This document shows, in pieces, positions 1 to 8,723 of a DNA stretch of 64,000 bases. A program made the translations under genes and the position numbers. The notes beneath the pieces are model-generated. The model made no database searches, was not told where the DNA came from, and saw nothing but the letters and a program-made list of their open reading frames with translations. The stretch's first letter is position 1. Every line of letters begins with the position of its first letter. Source of the DNA: Candidatus Latescibacterota bacterium (GTDB lineage: Bacteria; Latescibacterota; UBA2968; UBA8231); NCBI GenBank assembly GCA_965242865.1, contig CBDETK010000013.1, positions 4,832,001-4,896,000 on the forward strand, written 5' to 3'.

Positions 1-2358
1 TGTTTTACCTTTTGCGCGGAGTATTGGTGATCTGTCCACAAATATACCTTTGCCGGCGTTGACGTCGGCTCCGTTTTTAAGTAGGACTTCGGCGACCTCA
101 TAAGCGTTTGCAGATGCTGCAAAATGCAGCGGCGTATCGCCATCCTCGTCCTCCGCGTTGACTTTGGCTCCGTTTTTAAGTAGGACTTCGGCGACCTCAT
201 AAGCGTTTGCACCCGCCGCCACATGTAGCGGCCTATCGCCATCTTCATCCTCCGTGTTGACTTTGGCTCCGTTTCGTAGCAAGACTTCGGCGACCTCATA
301 AGCGTTTGCACCCGCCGCCACATGTAGCGGCGTAAAGTCTTTATCGCCCTTGGCGTTGACTTTGGCTCCGTTTTTGAGTAAGACCTCGGCGACCTCACAA
401 GCACTGGCATACGCCGCCAAATGCAGCAGCGTAAGGCCCTCCTCGTCCTTGGCGTTGACTTTGGCTCCGTTTCGTAGCAAGACTTCGGCCACCTCACAAG
501 CATTTGCCAACGCCGCAGCATGTAGCGGCCTACGGCCTTTATCGTCCTTGGCGTTGACTTTGGCTCCGTTTTTGAGCAAGACTTCGGCGACCTCATAAGC
601 ATTGGCCAACGCCGCCAAATGCAGCAGCGTATCGCCATCCTCGTCCTTGGCATTGACGTCGGCTCCGTTTTGTATCAAGACTTCGGCCACCTCACAAGCG
701 TTTGCAGACACCGCAGCACACAGCGGCGTATCGCCCTCCTCGTCCTTGGCGTTGACTTTGGCTCCGTTTTGTATCAAGACTTCGGCCACCTCACAAGCAT
801 TTGCCAACGCCGCAGCATGCAGGGGTGTATTATCTGCACACTCATAATCGTCATCGTCGCTTTCCATTTTATTTAAAAATGCCGTAAGGTGCGGCGAGAT
901 ATTGGCATGTAACGTGGCCTTCGCCTCGATGTCCGCCCCCTGATCCAGCAGGGATTGAGCGAGTGCAGGCAGGTTTAGCTGCACAGCATGATGCAGGTCG
1001 GTCACGCCTTTGTTGTACACTATATCCGGGGATGGATTGCGACCCACCTTCTCAACAAATTCCGCCTTCTCTCTCGCTTCTGCCTCTTCGCGCACCGTTC
1101 GTTCCGGGCTTGCAAGGTTTAGCGACCGGAAAATTTCATCCACTGCACTGAGCATCTTTTGCCGGATCACTCCCATCTGCTCCTTAATGGGCGCGAAATC
1201 TCGCTTTTGCGATTCTATCAGCTTGCTGACTTTTTCCCCTAAAACGTCCGCATCGTCAGCGCTCAACTCAGAAAGATGAAAGTCGATATCTGTGAGCTCG
1301 GTTGTCATCCACTTGGCCGTCCGTTCGTCTTTGAGAATGGCATTTGCATACATTTCAAAGACGTCATCAATCTCTTGCTTCAATTCCGCGCTCGCTCCTT
1401 GGGGCTGGTTTTGTGCGCGGAAAAAGTCCTCTAACGACTGCTCGTCGTAGAAGAATTCCTCGCCGCGCCGGGAGCTATACACGCTGATTCCGCAAGGCTC
1501 AATATCCGCGTCGGTCAGCGCGTTTTTCACCTCGTCCAGAATAGCCTCCAATTCGCCGCGCGGCTTGATATCCGCCTTGTTCAAAACCACGTATAACGGC
1601 AATGACCCCAACTCCAAATCCGCCAGAAATTCCAGATCCTCCTCGGGAACCGTGCCCGTCGCGTCTAGCCCAATCATCCAAATAAGCGCGTCCCGATCCT
1701 TGAGAAAAGCAGCGGCCGTCGTCCGGTCGTCGCTGCGGCCCCCCGGATTGTAGCCCGGCGTGTCGATCAAGCAGATGTTGGCAAACAGGTTGTCGCGCAA
1801 AGGAACCTCTACCGTGATGGAGGGCATGATGTGCTTGAGATTGAAGGAGAAGGTGTCGATGAAATTGTGGGACAGTTGGGAATACAGGGCCGGGTCAATA
1901 TCCACCGTATCGCCGCTGCGAGAAAAGCCCTTAATCGCCATCTCCGAATTGGCCATGACAAACGAAGGAATGGCCGTGGCCGGTTCGATTCGCTCCGGCA
2001 GCAAACGGTCGTATCCCTCGATAAAGCTATTGACGAAAGCCGACTTGCCGCTGCTGAACCCGCCGCCGATGGCAATGGCTCGCTTGGCGGAAAGGTGTGG
2101 AAAGGCGACGAGTTCCTTGAGCCGCTCGGTCAGCCGTTCCAAGCGCTCTATGGCGGTCGCTTCCTCAGCCAACGACGACTCCGCATCGGCAAACTCCCGA
2201 AACTCCCCGTTCAAGAGGGTCTCGAACTGCTTAAATTCTACGTGTTCATTGGGTTTGGCGGTGAGCAGATCGGAGACCAGTTTGTACTTTTTCTGCAAGT
2301 CCTCATGCTCTGAACGCAACCGAGCCGCGTCCTCTGCGACGAACGTACTCTCAGCCAT
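1..2358 (-). CDS. Dynamin-like GTPase fused to C-terminal ankyrin repeats (3' end beyond window)
   Basis: Manual translation. ATG at 2358 overlaps the upstream stop, and the frame stays open to base 1 (>=786 codons). MAESTFVAED..., G1 GGGFSSGKS, G2 PATA, G3 DTPG, G4 NKAD, a helical region, then repeats such as GDTPLHFAASANAYEVAEVLLKNGADVNA. Not in the ORF track because there is no stop in the window. Confidence 0.9.
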   Translation of the reverse strand, partial: MAESTFVAEDAARLRSEHEDLQKKYKLVSDLLTAKPNEHVEFKQFETLLNGEFREFADAESSLAEEATAIERLERLTERLKELVAFPHLSAKRAIAIGGGFSSGKSAFVNSFIEGYDRLLPERIEPATAIPSFVMANSEMAIKGFSRSGDTVDIDPALYSQLSHNFIDTFSFNLKHIMPSITVEVPLRDNLFANICLIDTPGYNPGGRSDDRTTAAAFLKDRDALIWMIGLDATGTVPEEDLEFLADLELGSLPLYVVLNKADIKPRGELEAILDEVKNALTDADIEPCGISVYSSRRGEEFFYDEQSLEDFFRAQNQPQGASAELKQEIDDVFEMYANAILKDERTAKWMTTELTDIDFHLSELSADDADVLGEKVSKLIESQKRDFAPIKEQMGVIRQKMLSAVDEIFRSLNLASPERTVREEAEAREKAEFVEKVGRNPSPDIVYNKGVTDLHHAVQLNLPALAQSLLDQGADIEAKATLHANISPHLTAFLNKMESDDDDYECADNTPLHAAALANACEVAEVLIQNGAKVNAKDEEGDTPLCAAVSANACEVAEVLIQNGADVNAKDEDGDTLLHLAALANAYEVAEVLLKNGAKVNAKDDKGRRPLHAAALANACEVAEVLLRNGAKVNAKDEEGLTLLHLAAYASACEVAEVLLKNGAKVNAKGDKDFTPLHVAAGANAYEVAEVLLRNGAKVNTEDEDGDRPLHVAAGANAYEVAEVLLKNGAKVNAEDEDGDTPLHFAASANAYEVAEVLLKNGADVNAGKGIFVDRSPILRAKGKT
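58..849. repeat. Eight tandem 99-bp units encoding 33-aa ankyrin repeats
   Basis: (G/A)TTGAC(TTT/GTC)GGCTCCGTTT recurs at 58, 157, 256, 355, 454, 553, 652 and 751. A degenerate ninth repeat (TDLHHAVQLNLPALAQSLLDQGADIEAK) lies at about 920-1010. Confidence 0.95.
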
Positions 2359-4549
2359 TATCAATCTCCTTCAATTCAGCGCTAAGACGGGTGATTCGCC
2401 CCAACTCCATGGTCTTATTTGCAATCGACTTTTCAAGTGAGGCGAGTTCCTTCTCAAACTTTTCCAGCAACCGCGTATCTAAATCAACGCGCCCCATCTC
2501 GGCGGTGAGATCATCAATGTACTCAAGCACCTCCTTGCGAAAGTCTCGACAAAACTTCGTAGAATAGTCGCATGCCTGTTGAAAAAATTTCTCCGCGTCC
2601 TCCCCTTCCAATACCCCTTGAGAAGTTAGGGTTGCTGGCAGTTGGATATTGTAGGTGAATGGTGAAACGGATATGGAGTTGACGGCATTTTTGATGATCT
2701 CGCGGACCCTCCATGCTTCTATCTCTTCATCGCCCAATTCTCGTCGCAAAATTTTGGTAAGCTCCCCATTGAGTCGCGCCCGCCACTGGTCCTTTTGGGC
2801 ATCTGTTTTCTCCGCAACCGTCTCCACCATTTCTTCACAAGACTTCGCCAAGCTCTCAACGACAGCGTTCGTGCGGATAGTCTCAATCCTTATACATTTC
2901 GTCCTCTTAAAGATGCCGGTTTGAAACGTTCTAGATGTTACGCCTCTTGTTCCATCTAAATCCGCTCGTAGCTGCCGATCGCGCCTTCCCAGTTCCTTCT
3001 TAAACTGGTCTTTCAGTTCTTTATTGGTCTGGTTGACCAATTCCTCGTGCGCCTCGCGAATGAGAAACGCCGTCTTTTCCAGCGACTTGAGCAAGCTGTC
3101 GCGCCGCTTCTTAAAGCTCTCAATCTCCATGTGCTCAATTTGGGTATGCCGCTCGTTCGCATACTTGAGGAGGCCGTTCTTTAGCTCGTGCAGCGACTGG
3201 AGCTTGGCGGCGATGTACTCTGTTTGTCGGGTCTTGATGATGGCGTCCTTTTGTTCGCGCACAGTGGCGACGATTTCCCGAATGCGCGATATGTTGGACA
3301 GCTTATCCAGACTGATACGCGATAATTCTGCATTTTCAGCCGAGAAATAGTTTTGATACTCAGCCAACAAATTGCCCCAAGCATGCTGCATCCCCTCGTC
3401 CCACTCATCTTTCTGCTCAAAACGCTGCTTCAGGCTTTCGCAAATGCCCGCCGTGTGAATGATTTTACCTCGCTCAAGCAACGGATCGTACGTATCGCCC
3501 ACTTCGGGATTGCGCTCCTTCAAATCGTCAATGACCTGCTCCAGATGGCTGCCAAGCACCTCCGTAGTGAGGCGGTCCAACGCACGATCCAAATTCCCGT
3601 TGCTCTCATCCTGCAAATTGCCGTAAAGCTGCATATCGGCTTGCGACGCCACCACGTATAGCTCGCGGATGCCTTCCTTCCCAGTGATGCGATCCATCAG
3701 GTTCAGATCCACGGTAGTCATAAACTGACCGGCCGGACTGACGATCAACACCACATCGCATTGACGCAGATGTTGTTGGGTGCGCTCCTCACGCGACCGA
3801 ACCGGATCGTTAATCCCCGGCGTATCCACAATTTCTATATCCCGCAAATTCTCTTGCGGCAACCGAATGTTGACGCTTTTGGTAACGGGCATGTAGCGGC
3901 CGGTCGCGCCGACGTAATCATCCAGTTGGTGCCGCAAATCGGCAAGCCTTGCCCATTGGAGCACGGTCTTTTCCTCGAGCGTTCCGATGTTGAGCATGGA
4001 CTTTTCGATCTTATCGTATTGATCATAAGCGGCGATCAAGGCGTCGTTGCCCTCCCTCATCGCCCGCTTCGCCCTGCTGCTCGCCCGCTCTTCTGGAGAT
4101 CGGCGCGCCCGAATTTCTTTTGCTCGTTCTTCGGTTAGAAATTTCTCGTAGAGCCGCTCTTCTCGCGTCTTGTATTCGCGGTACTTGTCCCTAATATGCC
4201 GTAAGTCCTCTTGGGTAAAAAACTCCACTTCCGCCGCTGGGCTTTCGCCATAAGAAAGCGTCGTCAAGGCCGCCGTCATGGGAGTTGCCGCCTTGGGCAG
4301 AATGCTTTCCCCCTGAAAGAGCAGGGCGTTTAGCAGCGAAGATTTTCCCGATTTGACCCGCCCCACAACGCCGATCTTGAGTAGGCGATTTTCACCTTCA
4401 ATGGCCGCCAGACTTGCTTGCAACTCCTTGGCCGCGGGAACGCCGTGTTCTTGAGCGAGGCTTGCCGCTTCATCCCCAAGAAAATCCTCATAGCGACCTA
4501 CGACCCGCTCCAGCTCGTCCCTATACGCGACGATTCCACTGTGTTCCAT
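2351..4549 (-). CDS. Dynamin-like GTPase, 732 aa
   Basis: G1 GRVKSGKS, G2 PMTA, G3 DTPG, atypical G4 SQAD, long helical C-terminus. RBS GGAGG upstream. Confidence 0.9.
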   Translation of the reverse strand: MEHSGIVAYRDELERVVGRYEDFLGDEAASLAQEHGVPAAKELQASLAAIEGENRLLKIGVVGRVKSGKSSLLNALLFQGESILPKAATPMTAALTTLSYGESPAAEVEFFTQEDLRHIRDKYREYKTREERLYEKFLTEERAKEIRARRSPEERASSRAKRAMREGNDALIAAYDQYDKIEKSMLNIGTLEEKTVLQWARLADLRHQLDDYVGATGRYMPVTKSVNIRLPQENLRDIEIVDTPGINDPVRSREERTQQHLRQCDVVLIVSPAGQFMTTVDLNLMDRITGKEGIRELYVVASQADMQLYGNLQDESNGNLDRALDRLTTEVLGSHLEQVIDDLKERNPEVGDTYDPLLERGKIIHTAGICESLKQRFEQKDEWDEGMQHAWGNLLAEYQNYFSAENAELSRISLDKLSNISRIREIVATVREQKDAIIKTRQTEYIAAKLQSLHELKNGLLKYANERHTQIEHMEIESFKKRRDSLLKSLEKTAFLIREAHEELVNQTNKELKDQFKKELGRRDRQLRADLDGTRGVTSRTFQTGIFKRTKCIRIETIRTNAVVESLAKSCEEMVETVAEKTDAQKDQWRARLNGELTKILRRELGDEEIEAWRVREIIKNAVNSISVSPFTYNIQLPATLTSQGVLEGEDAEKFFQQACDYSTKFCRDFRKEVLEYIDDLTAEMGRVDLDTRLLEKFEKELASLEKSIANKTMELGRITRLSAELKEIDNG

Positions 4550-4692
4550 TTCGTCCCTCCTTATAGCCGTCCTAAACGCCTTGAAAGCATAGAATGTTCA
4601 TCGACACCGTCTTTTTGCCTACGAGGCGTCATTTGAATGTACCGCCTAAACGCCGACCACTCAAGCTATCTGCCGGTCAACGCCGACCGCGC

Positions 4693-5180
4693 TCACAGCG
4701 GCATGTACTCCAGCCCAAAGACCCGCTCGACAAACCAACCCACCCCAAAAAGCCCAATCACGGCCGACACCACCAAGACGACCGTGCGCTGATAAGGCCG
4801 CCGACTGAGCCAAGCAACCAACGGAAAGACCAGCGCGACAATACCCACTTGGCCGATTTCCACGCCGGCGTTGAACGCAAACAGCGAGGCGACCAGCCCG
4901 TGCGTGGGCAGCCCCAACTCGCGCAGCACATTGGCGAAGCCAAATCCGTGGACCAGCCCAAAGGCAAAGGTGATCATCCAGCGGTAATCCGGGCGCTTGA
5001 GCCAGAAATTTTCCGCCGCCACGTACACGATGCTCAAGGCGATGGCCGCCTCGATCCACTCGCTCGGCAGACGGACGATTTCGAGGGCCGCCAAGCAGAG
5101 GGTGATGCTGTGGGCCACGGTAAAGGCCGTGACGACCTTGACCAGACTGAGCAGCCGACCGCCGACCACAATCAGTGCCA
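4693..5180 (-). pseudogene. HupE/UreJ-family membrane protein, N-terminally truncated
   Basis: Motifs TAFTVAHSITL, EAAIALSI, FGLVHGFGFA and FNAGVEIGQ. Similarity begins abruptly at LALIVVGG, with unrelated sequence upstream. Confidence 0.75.
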
Positions 5181-5331
5181 ACCAAATTCGTATAACTGGT
5201 ATTGAGCTTGTGGGCGCGAGCTGGAGTGGGGGCGGCCAAAAACAGCGGAATGTCGCAACGCAGGGCGATTTGCTTTTGCGCGGCCGCTTGGCTGACCGAA
5301 CCAACGGACGCATCGATCAAGGGCTTTAGTA

Positions 5332-6217
5332 ACCAATGGTGCTAGTCTGTTGACCGTGGTCCCGGTAGTTCCTACGCTGAGAGTATCCACCCTTTCAGCC
5401 CCGGAGCGTCCTGATGACCACGGCCGAGTTTATAATAGCCCTGTTCTACCGCATTGACAATCAAATGCTTGACGTGCCGAAACATCCGCAAGCGTCCCTA
5501 TACCCCAGTGAGGTGGTCACCTTAGGGATGTTGTATGCGCTCAAAGGCGGGGGTAAACGGGCGTTTTACCGCTGGCTGGTGCGGGACTGGCACGCTTGGT
5601 TCCCGCGCCTGCCGTCGCGCACGCGCTTGTTCCGCCTCTTCGCCGCCCATGCCGATTGGACCGACCGCTTCCGCGCCGAGCCGACGCCGTTAGGGGTGGT
5701 CGACAGCTATGGCATTGAGTTGATCCATCCGGTGCGTCAGGGTCGGGCACAGCACTCCCTCGGAAAGAAAGGGCTCTCCAATCACCGCTGGATCGTCGGC
5801 GGTAAGCTCTGCGTTATCGTCAATCAGTGGGGGCGGATCGTCGATTGGGATTGGAACACGGCATAAGTCCACGATTCGGTCTTTCATCCGATGATCCGAC
5901 GCTTCCAACAGCAAATGATCGTCCTCAGCGACCCAGGCTTTCATGCCAAAACCGGCGATCCGGCCAATCTGAAAGTCTGTCCTCGCAACACGTGGAACGA
6001 GCGGATGCTCATTGAGACCGTCTTTTCCATGCTCACCCGAATTAGCCGCTTTAAGCAGCAGACCCATCGGGCTTGGGCGTATTGTACTGCCCATCTCAGC
6101 TTTGCCATGGCCGCCTTCAACCTGCTGGTGCAGTGGCATGGAAGGCAGTCCGATGAAAACGGATTCGTCCCGTTGTCTATCGCCGAGTTCGGATTGTAAA
6201 ACACTAGCACCATTGGT
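5332..6217 (+). mobile_element. IS982-like insertion sequence, about 886 bp
   Basis: Terminal inverted repeats ACCAATGGTGCTAGT / ACTAGCACCATTGGT. 5-bp target duplication TAGTA at 5327-5331 and 6218-6222. Confidence 0.85.
5414..6199 (+). pseudogene. DDE transposase (IS982-like) with in-frame stop
   Basis: ORFs 5414-5866 and 5891-6199 share one frame, split by TAA at 5864-5866. DDE candidates VVDSYG, LSDPGF and RMLIETVFS. Confidence 0.8.
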
Positions 6218-6313
6218 TAGTAGGCAAGGGACCCGCTCGACTTCGAGTTGGTCCGACTCCAGCCGCGACAGGTCGAGCAAGTCGCCGAGCATTGCCATGA
6301 TTTCTGCCTCTTG

Positions 6314-6592
6314 CTAGTGGTAATCGACCAAGTCAACGTCGTACGCGTCGCCTTCTTCAAAGCGGAAGCTGATCTGCCAGTTGGCGGAAATCGAGATGCT
6401 CCAAAACTCTTTTAGATCGCCTTTCAGAGGGTGAAGTCGATATCCTGGTAAATTGAGATCCGATGGCTTGCTCGCGTCGTCGAGGTCCGCCAAAGCGAGT
6501 GCGATCCGTTGTGCCTGATCAGCACGTACTTGGCTCATATCTCCGCGCTCATACAACCGCTTGAGGCCGCGGTGTCGAAACGTCCAAATCAC
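6314..6592 (-). CDS. higB: HigB-type (RelE/ParE) toxin
   Basis: FRHRGLKRLYE...LNLPGYRLHPLKGDLKEFWSISISANWQISFRFEEGDAYDVDLVDYH. Probable GTG start at 6592. Confidence 0.88.
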   Translation of the reverse strand: MIWTFRHRGLKRLYERGDMSQVRADQAQRIALALADLDDASKPSDLNLPGYRLHPLKGDLKEFWSISISANWQISFRFEEGDAYDVDLVDYH

Positions 6593-6736
6593 AAATAAAG
6601 TCTGTCTAACTTCCCGCCTTTTTATGCTTGCTCTCAGCATGCATCTGTCGGCGAAAGGGAGGGGCTAGATTGTATCCTTGCTTAGACACTCCTTGATCAC
6701 GCAAGCACTGGAGCAACTCTCTTGCTTTCAGCACCT

Positions 6737-7165
6737 TCCTCACCAAAATTCGCGCCCAGTACTTGGGGCACGATGCCGCATCCGGCCGGGCGTGCGATCC
6801 CCTGCCGGAGCAATGCGAAAGAACGCTGGCAAGGCTGGCCGAGCTCGATGCAAAAAAAGCGATGGCCTTGCGCCGATATTTCAGCGAGATGTCCGCCGTG
6901 ATTGCGGAGATGCAGCGGGTTTTGAAAAAAGGCAAGGCGGCCGTGATTGTCGTCGGCACTTCGCATCTGCGCGGCATAGATGTCGAGACGCAAAAGGGGC
7001 TTGCCGCCATTGGCAAAAGCGTCGGTTTTGATTTGGCCGGAATCGGCGTCCGCCGCTTGGACCGCGACAAGCGCATGATGCCAGCGCGCTTGGGGCACGA
7101 AACGCCACTCGCAGATTGAGCAACGGATGCACGAAGAGTACGTGATTGGATTGGTGAAATCGTAA
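6737..7165 (+). pseudogene. C-terminal remnant of an amino (N4C/N6A-type) DNA methyltransferase, frameshifted
   Basis: YFSEM...EMQRVLKKGKAAVIVVGTS...RMMPAR. A +1 shift near 7090 continues as SQIEQRMHEEYVIGLVKS* (TAA 7163-7165). No start codon and no catalytic motifs. Confidence 0.6.
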
Positions 7166-7353
7166 TGTTGGGAAGAATCGAAGAATTGAGCAGAATCGCG
7201 TCGCTGGCAGATGGTACTGGCGACATAGACTGCATGTACCATTTTGCGCTGCGCGAATTAGCAGAATCCTCGGATGTTGAGCTATTGGAGGTGCTGGTCT
7301 CCGGCCGACGCTTGCGCGACATCAGCGACTTGCCGTTTGATTTGGCGATCTGA
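7165..7353 (+). pseudogene. Internally deleted NgoMIV-family restriction endonuclease
   Basis: SRIASLADGTGDIDCMYHFAL...GRRLRDISDLPFDLAI resembles the NgoMIV-family C-terminus. TAATG coupling to the MTase remnant. Only 62 aa. Confidence 0.75.
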
Positions 7354-7438: not shown

Positions 7439-7610
7439 ATGATGTAGCGTTGCTATATATCTGGAGATTGAGCCTTTGACGTAAGAACATCTACGACCAA
7501 AGATGTGGCAAAAAATAGATGTTTTTACAACGAAAGTGGAGTTACACAGCACAATGGGTTGCCTTTGTTGCTGGTTCCCGCCCACCATGTACCGTACGGA
7601 GAAAACACCT

Positions 7611-8723
7611 ATGAGTAAGGAAGCCCGCGCACTGTACGCGGCTATGGGGGCGACGCCCGTGATCAACGCCCTCGGCCCGCGCACCCTCTTAGGGGGATCG
7701 TCCCCCCACCCGGACATCATCGCCGCGATGGAACTGGCCGGCCGCTACTACGTTGATATGGATGCCTTTTTGGCGAGCACCGGGCGGGTCGTCGCCGACC
7801 TGCTCGGGGCCGAGGCCGCGCTGATTACCCCGGGCTGCGCGGCCGCGTTGGTCCTCGGCACGGCCGCTTGCATAACCGGCGTAGATCCGGAGAAAATGGC
7901 CCGCTTGCCCGATGCGACCAGCATGCCCAACCAAGTGGTCATCCAAAAGGCCCAACGCTACAAATACGACCGCATGGTGCGCCTGCCCGGGGCCACCCTC
8001 GTGGAGGCGGGCACCGAGCAGGGCACCACAGCCGACGAGCTGGCCGCAGCTTTTGGCCCCCAAACGGCCGCCCTCCTCTACCCGGCCATCGACACCCCAG
8101 CCGCCATCGTCCCGCTGGCCGAGGCCATTGCCATCGCCCACGCCCACGACGTGCCGATCTTCGTGGATGCGGCCTTCCGCGTCTATCCCCTAGCCGGCTT
8201 AACCCAATACATCGCGGCCGGGGCCGACTTAGTTGGCTACGGGGCCAAGTACGTGGGCGCGCCCAATTCTTCGGGCATCCTCTGCGGCCGCGCCGACTTA
8301 ATCGAAGCCGCCCACCTGCACAGCTTTGCCTGCTTTGAAACCCGCGACCTAGAAGGGGTTGGCCGCCCGCTCAAAATCGACCGCCAAGAAGTCGTCGGCG
8401 TGGTCGTGGCCCTGCGCCGCTGGCTGGCCATGGACCACGACGCCCGCAACCGAGGCGACGCCCGCCGCGCCGAGACCGTGCGTCAGCACTTGGGCCAACT
8501 GCCCCACGTGCAAAGCTCGGTCGATGGCGCGTCCCTGACGCTGACCTTGGACGAACCAGCCCTCGGCCGCACCGCGGCCGACCTAGAAAAAGCCCTGCGC
8601 AACGGCAATCCCTCGGTCTGGCTCTCAGCGGCCCCGGGCCAACTTCACTTGTCCATGCCCACCGTGGCCGACGGGGATGAGGAGCTTTTGGCCACGCAAT
8701 TGAAGAAGGCGTTAAGTGGTTAG
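7611..8723 (+). CDS. SelA-like PLP-dependent enzyme (DgaE-like ammonia-lyase family)
   Basis: PVINALGPRTLLGGS, GAEAALITPGCAAAL, VDAA, YGAKY (PLP lysine), GRPLKIDRQEVVG. RBS before ATG 7611. Confidence 0.8.
   Translation: MSKEARALYAAMGATPVINALGPRTLLGGSSPHPDIIAAMELAGRYYVDMDAFLASTGRVVADLLGAEAALITPGCAAALVLGTAACITGVDPEKMARLPDATSMPNQVVIQKAQRYKYDRMVRLPGATLVEAGTEQGTTADELAAAFGPQTAALLYPAIDTPAAIVPLAEAIAIAHAHDVPIFVDAAFRVYPLAGLTQYIAAGADLVGYGAKYVGAPNSSGILCGRADLIEAAHLHSFACFETRDLEGVGRPLKIDRQEVVGVVVALRRWLAMDHDARNRGDARRAETVRQHLGQLPHVQSSVDGASLTLTLDEPALGRTAADLEKALRNGNPSVWLSAAPGQLHLSMPTVADGDEELLATQLKKALSG

Follow-up and report, generated by a model that had tools for sequence, protein, structure and literature searches.

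The window analysed here is a stretch of 64,000 nucleotides (nt) from a Candidatus Latescibacterota bacterium (metagenome-assembled genome GCA_965242865.1, contig CBDETK010000013.1, positions 4,832,001 to 4,896,000; G000:C13:4832001-4896000 in the notation used below, where G000 stands for this genome), and flanking DNA beyond it was fetched from the same contig. On the minus strand of its first 4549 nt lie two genes for dynamin-like proteins (DLPs), gene2 and gene3, the second of which continues in one reading frame from a short GTPase core into an array of ankyrin repeats. Comparison with related loci lends good support to the view that this pair represents the distal two-thirds of a conserved three-gene cassette of dynamin-like GTPases occurring in many phyla. 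The best explanation of the locus, which we favour with a confidence slightly above even, is that of a truncated three-dynamin cassette in which gene3 would be a target-binding adaptor or sensor subunit, most likely within a conflict system. The interest lies mainly in the family-wide pattern, and less in the truncated locus of the window.

The three-dynamin cassette and its dynamin-ankyrin protein

The pair had first been read, from the sequence alone, as a two-gene system. One genome per species was scanned with an alignment of gene3 cores, which returned 80 loci; after exclusion of the 13 loci with less upstream flank, 67 remained, each with 4300 nt or more of upstream sequence, and in 66 of them (the exception being L044) homologues of both gene1 and gene2 were found upstream of gene3, on the same strand. 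Because the related loci hold three dynamin genes, of which the window keeps only the second and third, the pair is not a two-gene system. The closest of the 80 loci, at 81-82% identity, belong to Candidatus Latescibacterota, while more distant ones are found in Helicobacter, Campylobacter, Neisseria, Pseudomonas, Treponema, Fibrobacter, Leclercia and others. The cassette junctions are mainly overlaps or gaps of a few nt: gene2 and gene3 overlap or lie no more than 1 nt apart in 27 of 33 related loci, and the same 8-nt overlap is seen in L012, with the reservation that the ORF (open reading frame) calls take the first possible start, so that overlaps may be overstated. In terms of size, the family comprises 2563 clusters at 50% identity with E <= 1e-3, 1047 with E <= 1e-10 and 396 with E <= 1e-30.

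As regards the members of the cassette, gene1 (about 570 amino acids, aa) is Cj-DLP2/LeoA-like, with Cj-DLP2 as its best PDB sequence match (E 7.5e-9) and a strongly hydrophobic paddle (Kyte-Doolittle 2.35 at residue 446), and gene2 (about 735 aa) is a full-length BDLP/Cj-DLP1-like dynamin. The GTPase motifs are conserved in both the gene2 and the gene3 families. Several variants of the cassette were encountered. Two tandem gene1 copies are present in L016 (2073-5652), and two tandem gene3-like matches in L059, L067, L078 and L080. In Helicobacter pylori (L084:6411-9497), one ORF of 1029 aa contains the end of gene2 and the whole of gene3, with three Dynamin_N stretches, and is either a fusion or a read-through. 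On the Escherichia coli IncF plasmid NZ_CP148279.1 (L112, 4848-12436), three genes annotated as 'dynamin family protein' follow each other, the third being a bare core of 405 aa whose end overlaps by 8 nt with a gene for an 829-aa 'CFI-box-CTERM domain-containing protein', and this arrangement has a match in ten Escherichia plasmids; the partner module of the E. coli plasmid cassette may thus be encoded by a separate gene.

For the window, an ORF listing with open ends allowed gave two minus-strand ORFs, at 2351..4549 and, open at its 3' end, at 1..2364. Extension of the contig supplied the missing C-terminus of gene3, which is 796 aa long and ends 10 codons plus stop past the window; its absence from the ORF track available to the sequence-only reading is probably explained by the ORF running off the window edge. 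The features of the two genes, all on the minus strand, are as follows.

2351..4549, minus: gene2, full-length dynamin-like protein, 732 aa, ATG start (ORF, Pfam, PDB sequence match, AF2, Foldseek)
2351..2358, minus: gene2-gene3 overlap of 8 nt, gene2 stop and gene3 start, ATGGCTGA (junction read directly)
1..2358, minus, its last 10 codons and stop occupying 33 nt past window base 1: gene3, predicted mini-DLP plus ankyrin array, 796 aa (ORF, extension L009:9968-12358, Pfam, orthologues)
2086..2358, minus: gene3 residues 1-91, N-terminal helices of the bundle (AF2 helices 2-33, 40-59 and 66-85)
1399..2085, minus: gene3 residues 92-320, GTPase domain (Pfam Dynamin_N 95-249, motif conservation, AF2)
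1039..1398, minus: gene3 residues 321-440, C-terminal helices completing the single helical bundle, with no trunk and no hydrophobic paddle (AF2 pLDDT 92.1, Foldseek)
841..1038, minus: gene3 residues 441-506, linker and degenerate, interrupted first ankyrin repeat (sequence)
49..840, minus: gene3 residues 507-770, eight canonical 33-residue ankyrin repeats (Pfam, repeat HMM, TRF)
1..48, minus: gene3 residues 771-786, start of a partial C-terminal capping repeat (extended sequence)

The ORF listing, the junction letters and Pfam all agree with the earlier proposal of two co-oriented dynamin-like genes overlapping by 8 nt. More precisely, gene2 terminates with GAT AAT GGC TGA, inside which the gene3 ATG is located at 2358-2356, and this ATG at 2358 is preferred as the start over the TTG at 2364 because the orthologues of gene3 also start with MAEST. 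A strong Shine-Dalgarno-like AAGGAGG is present 7 nt 5' of the gene2 ATG, and translational coupling of gene2 and gene3 is supported. A scan for promoters and terminators over L009:8500-15000 was uninformative, with no promoter-like site (mean of 2.8 in shuffled sequences) and 6 terminator-like sites (7.5 in shuffles).

By sequence and predicted fold, both proteins fall in the dynamin superfamily, given that each has a Dynamin_N match above the gathering score of 27 bits (E 8.3e-24 and 84.9 bits for gene2; E 4.7e-9 and 36.9 bits, residues 95-249, for gene3) and a G domain on a helical bundle. Besides, the top Foldseek matches of gene2 and of the gene3 core are all DLPs, mitofusins or EHDs. In gene2, the P-loop GRVKSGKS lies at residues 63-70 and DTPG at 242-245, and the P-loop, the switch-I Thr and the DxxG motif are invariant across 53 relatives. 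In its AF2 model (pLDDT 85.2), helices are inserted into the G domain (about 113-184), the trunk helices are long and a beta-hairpin is formed at 535-559, but gene2 has no hydrophobic stretch, the best Kyte-Doolittle value outside the G domain being 0.57; at the N-terminus, about 55 residues forming three short helices come ahead of strand 57-63 and the P-loop. The best PDB sequence match of gene2 is Cj-DLP1 (5owv_A, E 3.1e-14), and Foldseek aligns its model with SynDLP, BDLP and Cj-DLP1 over 743-865 columns (E 2e-16 to 6e-12).

The core of gene3 is shorter. Its AF2 model (pLDDT 92.1, pTM 0.82) consists of a G domain and one helical bundle, and Foldseek relates it to IniA, BDLP, mitofusins and Cj-DLP2 at E of about 1e-11, the best target-normalised matches being truncated mitofusin-1, or mini-MFN1 (TMt 0.40-0.43). 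Because the core folds in the model as a G domain with a single bundle, and because its best normalised matches are truncated mitofusin-1, gene3 is predicted to be a natural 'mini-DLP' without trunk or paddle. No hydrophobic segment appears in its hydrophobicity profile, a PDB sequence search with the core found no match at E <= 0.01, and its ESM Atlas matches are only generic 'dynamin family protein' clusters. The GTPase motifs quoted in the sequence-only reading are present, namely GGGFSSGKS (G1, 98-106), DTPG (199-202) and NKAD (260-263), together with T128, and their key residues are invariant or nearly so among 80 sequences, in which S102, G104, K105, T128, D199 and P201 never vary.

The count of eight tandem repeats and a degenerate one could likewise be retained: eight repeats stand in register at residues 507-770, preceded by a degenerate, interrupted repeat (about 452-506) and followed by a partial cap, with nothing further C-terminal of the array. 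Pfam ankyrin families match eight stretches at E 1e-42 to 1e-60 (Ank at E 4.6e-60, plus Ank_2, Ank_3, Ank_4 and Ank_5), and at the DNA level TRF detects a 99-nt period with 7.8 copies and 82% matches at L009:10055-10830, that is window 55-830. Linker residues 417-468 have a likeness elsewhere in the genome, to the beginning of a separate ankyrin ORF that is the first of a cluster at G000:C13:478115-483185. This cluster contains five consecutive ankyrin-repeat ORFs, with 5 to 12 matches each to a hidden Markov model (HMM) of the window repeats and 64-74% DNA identity to the window array. Other ankyrin proteins were considered as relatives and set aside. The NCBIfam matches of gene3 to Legionella ankyrin effectors, MzaA and TRP channels, and its PADLOC matches to PDC-M72A, 'Ankyrin' and MzaA, lie within the repeats only and fall well short of the cut-offs; for the Legionella Dot/Icm families (AnkH, AnkY and others, with cut-offs of 450-1400 bits), the best score is 178 bits against a cut-off of 600, again in the repeats only, and this similarity appears to be generic ankyrin similarity only.

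The dynamin-ankyrin fusion could in principle be an artefact of assembly or gene calling, a view to which the breaking of short-read contigs within the repeat array might lend some credit. It is already contradicted by the present evidence, and we regard it as extremely improbable. The reading frame is uninterrupted. Moreover, 61 of 120 listed protein clusters, which were found with core residues 1-470 alone and come from other assemblies, some on megabase contigs, also carry ankyrin families (cross-checked in the 120 with the HMM of the window repeats), and a second dynamin-ankyrin gene, a paralogue, exists elsewhere in the same genome. Finally, a short-read contig of run X1, possibly the source sample, spans the junction of core and array (790-2068) with 0 differences, and a contig of the independent sponge-metagenome run X5 also bridges core into array, with an in-frame linker that is 75 nt shorter. 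Misassembly is thus unlikely, because the same architecture recurs in those 61 clusters and because junction-bridging contigs are available in X1 and X5. In the X5 relative, 88 nt of linker at window 829-918 are exchanged for 13 other letters, a net difference of 75 nt that stays in frame; linker length is polymorphic.

The variable module and the distribution of the cassette

Across relatives, the C-terminus of gene3 carries different modules: ankyrin, HHH_3, TPR/Sel1, WG, MORN, FGE-sulfatase or SWIB. Besides the 61 ankyrin clusters, the 120 listed core relatives include 20 with HHH families (HHH_3 and related) and 39 with none or other, some of the latter being truncated predictions. Ten long representatives were hand-picked from an exhaustive search, and eight of them have Sel1/TPR, WG_beta_rep, MORN_2 or FGE-sulfatase after the core; chosen proteins that were scanned showed ankyrin with FGE-sulfatase, ankyrin with SWIB, and long N-terminal coiled coils. 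In P0036 (877 aa), the stretch following HHH_3 looks by eye like a HigA/XRE-type helix-turn-helix, unreported by Pfam at E <= 1e-4, and represents either a further module or a fused gene call.

On a FastTree phylogeny of 119 cores, a three-state label for the module needs at least 16 changes, and the starred branches alone force 4 changes for ankyrin and 8 for HHH; the module thus appears to have been swapped repeatedly between lineages. The number of ankyrin repeats also seems to change fast between near-identical cores: proteins whose cores are identical in the kept columns differ in length (872 aa for P0020 versus 983 aa for P0021; 938 aa for P0022 versus 896 aa for P0023), and among 17 clusters with 91-95% core identity total length varies between 726 and 894 aa. 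The notion of a 'built-in variable sensor', put forward in the sequence-only reading, gains comparative support for its variable part, in the way that the same position varies in module among relatives. The sensing part is what we infer as the best available explanation of this pattern.

The distribution of the cassette is patchy and mobile. A cassette match was found in 11 of 168 genomes of the phylum (G000 included) and in 5 of 30 within the genus, where several single-contig genomes have none, and the cassette is carried by plasmids of P. aeruginosa, Calditerrivibrio, E. coli and Photobacterium. The architecture is not rare: it occurs in many metagenomic clusters and, in this genome, twice plus a remnant, and at least one NCBI record with the core-ankyrin architecture is named merely 'ankyrin repeat domain-containing protein'. 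Near-identical sequence is found in the sponge-metagenome runs X5-X8, which contain 0.29-0.60 of the words, the X5 pieces being mostly 95-99% alike; no RNA run is among the runs listed with such sequence. By tblastn with the gene3 core, no match was found in a phage collection, and blastn with the Leclercia gene2-gene3 DNA found none in E. coli complete genomes.

Some of the flanks contain defence genes. On the P. aeruginosa megaplasmid, the gene immediately ahead of the cassette encodes a WYL-domain protein and is itself preceded by genes annotated as EH-signature and DEAD/DEAH helicase, two annotations that describe ZorC and ZorD of Zorya, while integrases and insertion sequence (IS) elements follow the cassette. 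Ten large ORFs hand-picked from the flanks of 8 loci, and hence not random, were searched with PADLOC, which matched PglZ and BrxL (L040), SspH (L034), a TnpB/Cas12f-like protein (L033) and, weakly, a UvrD/GajB-like protein (L057). In addition, GmrSD adjoins the L034 cassette according to Pfam.

Loss of gene1 and the possible functions of the pair

In the two closest genomes (L011 and L012), similarity to the window at the DNA level extends from rimO through gene3 and gene2 and ends at about window 4539. At the position of the breakpoint, both loci have gene1, which in L012 is preceded by 3-dehydroquinate synthase. The neighbourhood of the pair in the window is composed of the following features.

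4550..4692, no strand: synteny breakpoint (blastn, tblastn for gene1, contigs of several runs diverging at 4561-4616)
4693..5313, minus: HupE/UreJ-family membrane protein gene, in the place of gene1 directly upstream of gene2 (Pfam HupE_UreJ_2, E 5.3e-40)
5414..7353, no strand: stretch of mobile and defence debris (ORF listing, Pfam)
5414-5866 and 5891-6199: two IS-like ORF fragments, without Pfam match and IS-like by eye
6314-6640, minus: HigB-like toxin gene, without evident partner (Pfam)
7165-7353, plus: 62-aa C-terminal fragment of an NgoMIV-type restriction enzyme
beyond the window start, minus: rimO-type radical-SAM methylthiotransferase gene, 21 nt downstream of gene3 on the same strand, then a GBBH-like_N gene

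The restriction-modification and toxin-antitoxin debris that had been noticed beside the pair is therefore there, in the form of the HigB-like toxin gene, the NgoMIV-type fragment and the IS-like ORFs, and the loss of gene1 by rearrangement next to this debris is well supported by the sequence comparison. Farther on, a 406-aa ORF at window 7503-8723 (plus strand) has weak matches to SelA and to families of PLP-dependent enzymes (E 1.9e-5); the low-G+C stretch ends at this ORF, from which G+C climbs to 62-68%.

Searching the whole genome with gene1 gives two matches besides weak G-domain matches to the two gene3 copies. One is the complete gene1 of an intact three-gene paralogue (L010:6652-12673, that is G000:C13:1661652-1667673, minus strand), whose proteins measure 573, 734 and about 661 aa, the last with 4 ankyrin repeats, and whose G+C is low (50-58%), as in the window copy. 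By eye, the paralogue is flanked by signal-peptidase-I-like and proteasome/Pup-type genes on one side and by a GFO/IDH/MocA-type oxidoreductase on the other. The other match is a 183-aa chimera (L092:1501-2052, that is G000:C13:4667082-4667633, plus strand), in which residues 1-121 of gene1, P-loop included and 82% identical to the gene1 of the paralogue, continue without a frame break into two ankyrin repeats; an internal deletion reaching from gene1 to the end of gene3 seems to have collapsed a third cassette here. The gene1 5' piece at C13:4667082-4667441 was considered as the lost gene1 of the window locus and rejected, as it belongs to this separate collapsed cassette. In L011 (4873-5946), an IS4/5-family transposase gene (206 aa, DUF4096 and DDE_Tnp_1) lies inside the 5' end of gene2, of which the first 47 codons are left upstream; this 206-aa ORF had been a candidate for HupE and was rejected as a transposase by Pfam. 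The cassette appears to have been targeted by IS activity in more than one genome.

Concerning the relation between the two proteins of the window, gene order, coupling and co-occurrence suggest that gene2 and gene3 bind each other. A complex prediction with gene2 residues 1-530 and gene3 residues 1-470, both as alignments, scored 0.32 compared to 0.00 for the best of 3 controls, which counts as 'weak support': the mark is reached by 58 of 80 solved complexes and by 2 of 110 mismatched pairs, and at or below 0.60 by 7 of the 80 and by both of those mismatched pairs. At least 64% of contacts agree between the runs and the partner pLDDT is at least 71; as dynamin G-G dimers have already been solved, likeness to them may explain this pass. 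In the proposed mechanism, gene3 would be an adaptor or sensor subunit whose module binds a target, which would be a protein for ankyrin, TPR, Sel1, WG and MORN and DNA for HHH_3, and its G domain would pair in a GTP-dependent manner with that of gene2 and/or gene1. Recognition of the target would then recruit or switch on the membrane-binding dynamins. In a conflict role, directed against phages or mobile elements, the system might act in the manner of Eleos or Mx proteins but with a variable sensor made of repeats, as in NLRs, and the window pair would need the gene1 of the paralogue in trans or would work in a reduced way. The window pair itself may have a defence or membrane-remodelling role. 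A bolder version, in which the cassette would be a new and widespread prokaryotic Mx-like immune system whose gene3 recognises a phage or plasmid component through its repeat module (in the window a fast-evolving ankyrin array) and, by GTP-dependent pairing of G domains, sets off gene1 and gene2, with sealing, tethering or sacrifice of the membrane as the outcome, is put forward tentatively and seems rather improbable as it stands.

In favour of this reading of cassette and function stand the three-gene order with its tight junctions, the paddle of gene1, the folds and the conserved GTPase motifs, the varied and swapped modules with their fast change of repeat number, the patchy and partly plasmid-borne distribution, the defence neighbours of some loci, the low G+C and the signs of purifying selection. 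Several observations weigh against a conflict system built around an adaptor. First of all, gene1, the sole member with a clear membrane anchor, is absent from the window locus. At E <= 0.01, the PADLOC Eleos models have no match in either of the two window proteins; the gene3 core is matched by no PADLOC model at all, and in the three cassettes tested the Eleos models match gene1 and gene2 of relatives only weakly and partially. Half of the hand-picked flanking ORFs (5/10) have no PADLOC match, and the Latescibacterota cassettes are flanked by housekeeping genes: 3-dehydroquinate synthase and rimO in L011 and L012, rimO in the window and, for loci of the paralogue type, a GFO/IDH/MocA-type oxidoreductase (by eye in L010, by Pfam in L013 and L016) and, by eye, signal peptidase I. 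The G+C content of gene2 (52.4%) and gene3 (54.6%) is low compared to the genome mean of 60.6% and to the 64.1% of rimO, only 7.6% of 2.2-kb windows being at or below 53%, but this may mirror the composition of charged coiled coils. Lastly, with the HMM of the window repeats, 27 ORFs with ankyrin repeats are found in the genome, so that the fusion could be opportunistic, and the repeats within one protein are homogenised, which fits a recent tandem expansion as well as selection for new specificities.

Three other explanations have to be set beside this one. The housekeeping flanks, the paddle of gene1 and the folds themselves, which are those of membrane-remodelling DLPs, would also suit a housekeeping or stress-response machine for membrane repair or fusion, comparable to B. 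subtilis DynA or Cj-DLP1/2, in which the module only localises or scaffolds. HcpA-type proteins are Sel1-repeat proteins. The Cj-dlp1/2 operon includes a third gene, cj0413, described as HcpA-like in the part of the source consulted (PMC6104087), which may be a non-defence precedent for repeat partners. Against such a machine stand the patchy occurrence even among single-contig genomes of the genus (5/30), the plasmid-borne copies, the repeated swaps of module with fast change of repeat number, and the presence within one genome of three copies decayed to different degrees, unusual for housekeeping; we judge it improbable, though the most serious of the three. The pair might instead be a decaying remnant, functionless after the loss of gene1, in which stops have not yet been acquired. 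Synteny ends where gene2 starts, next to the debris of IS, HigB and a restriction enzyme, and this would agree with such a view, as would the collapse of another genomic copy into the 183-aa chimera. Yet the ORFs of 732 and 796 aa are each intact, the GTPase motifs in them are conserved, a strong Shine-Dalgarno sequence precedes gene2, the complete gene1 of the paralogue could act in trans, and gene2 and the gene3 core appear to be under purifying selection (dN/dS versus L012 of 0.29 and 0.17, respectively, an average that includes the time before gene1 loss), so that decay is somewhat less probable still than a repair machine.

The third explanation is that of a symbiosis factor, whose ankyrin array would act on sponge host proteins while its dynamin part would reshape membranes of the host or of the bacterium during uptake or persistence. 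Sponge symbionts are rich in ankyrin proteins, and the near-identical sequence in runs X5-X8, the related cores with ankyrin and SWIB and the many ankyrin ORFs of the genome all fit this view. It is nevertheless difficult to reconcile with the same cassette bearing other modules or none in free-living, gut and pathogenic bacteria of many phyla, or with sister cores carrying the DNA-binding HHH_3 in place of ankyrin; in addition, neither a signal peptide nor a hydrophobic N-terminus is seen in gene3, and no secretion genes are adjacent. This makes it the least probable of these three.

With the adaptor reading thus preferred, its significance can be outlined. Bacterial dynamins are known as pairs, and a question posed by DynA, LeoABC, Eleos and Cj-DLP1/2 is how they are aimed at a site or switched on. 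A third dynamin, lacking a trunk and with a binding module as its only variable part would be a testable answer, namely an adaptor or sensor subunit, and cultivable carriers (Pseudomonas, Neisseria, Marinobacter, Campylobacter) make experiments feasible. If the cassette were an immune system, Mx-type dynamin immunity and NLR-type variable sensors would be joined in one machine, and the NLR-style variable sensor would enter the dynamin superfamily. As for sponge symbionts, one of their many ankyrin proteins would gain a defined molecular context.

Comparison with known systems

The pair had been likened to the LeoABC, Eleos and Cj-DLP1/2 types of dynamin pair. This comparison does not hold, the cassette having three complete GTPases. 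In a literature search that left aside subscription journals and supplements, neither a three-dynamin cassette nor the fusion of a bacterial dynamin to ankyrin or other repeats was found described in any paper. The idea of an undescribed architecture therefore stands as far as the literature searched is concerned, whereas the architecture itself is recurrent in databases: the cassette is widespread but unstudied, and multi-dynamin operons as such are already known.

Eleos is described in the part of the Millman et al. 2022 preprint consulted as a two-gene operon of LeoBC and LeoA that protects against jumbo phages, needs both P-loops and often lies beside defence systems. The likeness consists in an operon of consecutive dynamin-like GTPases and in weak matches of gene1 and gene2 to the LeoA and LeoBC models. 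More precisely, in the three cassettes tested, gene1 of the relatives partially matches LeoA (E 9e-9 to 3e-12) and LeoBC (E 4e-4 to 2e-8), gene2 matches LeoBC in two of the three (E about 1e-11), with none for L010, and gene3 has no match. Eleos differs in having two dynamins instead of three complete G domains and no counterpart of gene3, and no variable repeat module is described in that part of the preprint (Millman et al. 2022).

The Campylobacter proteins Cj-DLP1 and Cj-DLP2 form a heterotypic pair of a BDLP-like long DLP and a LeoA-like DLP with a paddle at the trunk tip (PMC6104087, as far as consulted; PDB 5owv/5oxf). Gene2 matches Cj-DLP1, gene1 matches Cj-DLP2 and, according to the same partial source, the Cj operon also has the third gene cj0413. 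However, the order of the genes is reversed compared to the cassette, identity is low and confined to the G domain, and the third gene of the cassette is itself a GTPase. Besides, Cj-DLP1 has an N-terminal assembly domain of 119 residues involved in tetramer formation (PMC6104087), in place of which gene2 has about 55 residues. In enterotoxigenic E. coli LeoABC, LeoC (206 aa) and LeoB (572 aa) are, according to the part of PMC4159319 consulted, the halves of one DLP, so that three genes give two dynamins; three consecutive dynamin-family genes are thus shared with the cassette, which differs by its three complete G domains. As far as these partly consulted sources go, none of Eleos, LeoABC and Cj-DLP1/2 has a third GTPase with a variable module.

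Neither do family models place the proteins in a named group. For the LeoA/HP0731 family (NCBIfam NF041922, cut-off 325 bits), gene1 of the paralogue scores 19.9 bits, and gene1 of the Leclercia, H. pylori and Pseudomonas loci has no match at E <= 1e-5. With the model of B. subtilis DynA, which has two DLPs in one chain (NCBIfam NF052648, more than 1600 bits), gene3 obtains 23.6 bits and gene1 of the paralogue 20 bits.

In structural terms, the closest counterpart of the gene3 core is truncated mitofusin-1, or mini-MFN1 (PDB 5yew, 5gof, 5gnt and others), which also combines a G domain with one four-helix bundle. Mini-MFN1 is, however, an engineered truncation of a protein with a second bundle and transmembrane segments, whereas gene3 is predicted to be naturally short and runs into a binding module. 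In functional terms, an analogy can be drawn with STAND/NLR-like NTPases such as Avs and bNACHT, in which a variable C-terminal repeat module on an NTPase core marks sensors. Like them, gene3 has a conserved NTPase core and a C-terminal module of repeat families that differs between close relatives. The analogy is functional only, since gene3 is a TRAFAC dynamin GTPase and not a STAND ATPase, and since it has no fused effector, in the place of which the cassette provides two further dynamins.

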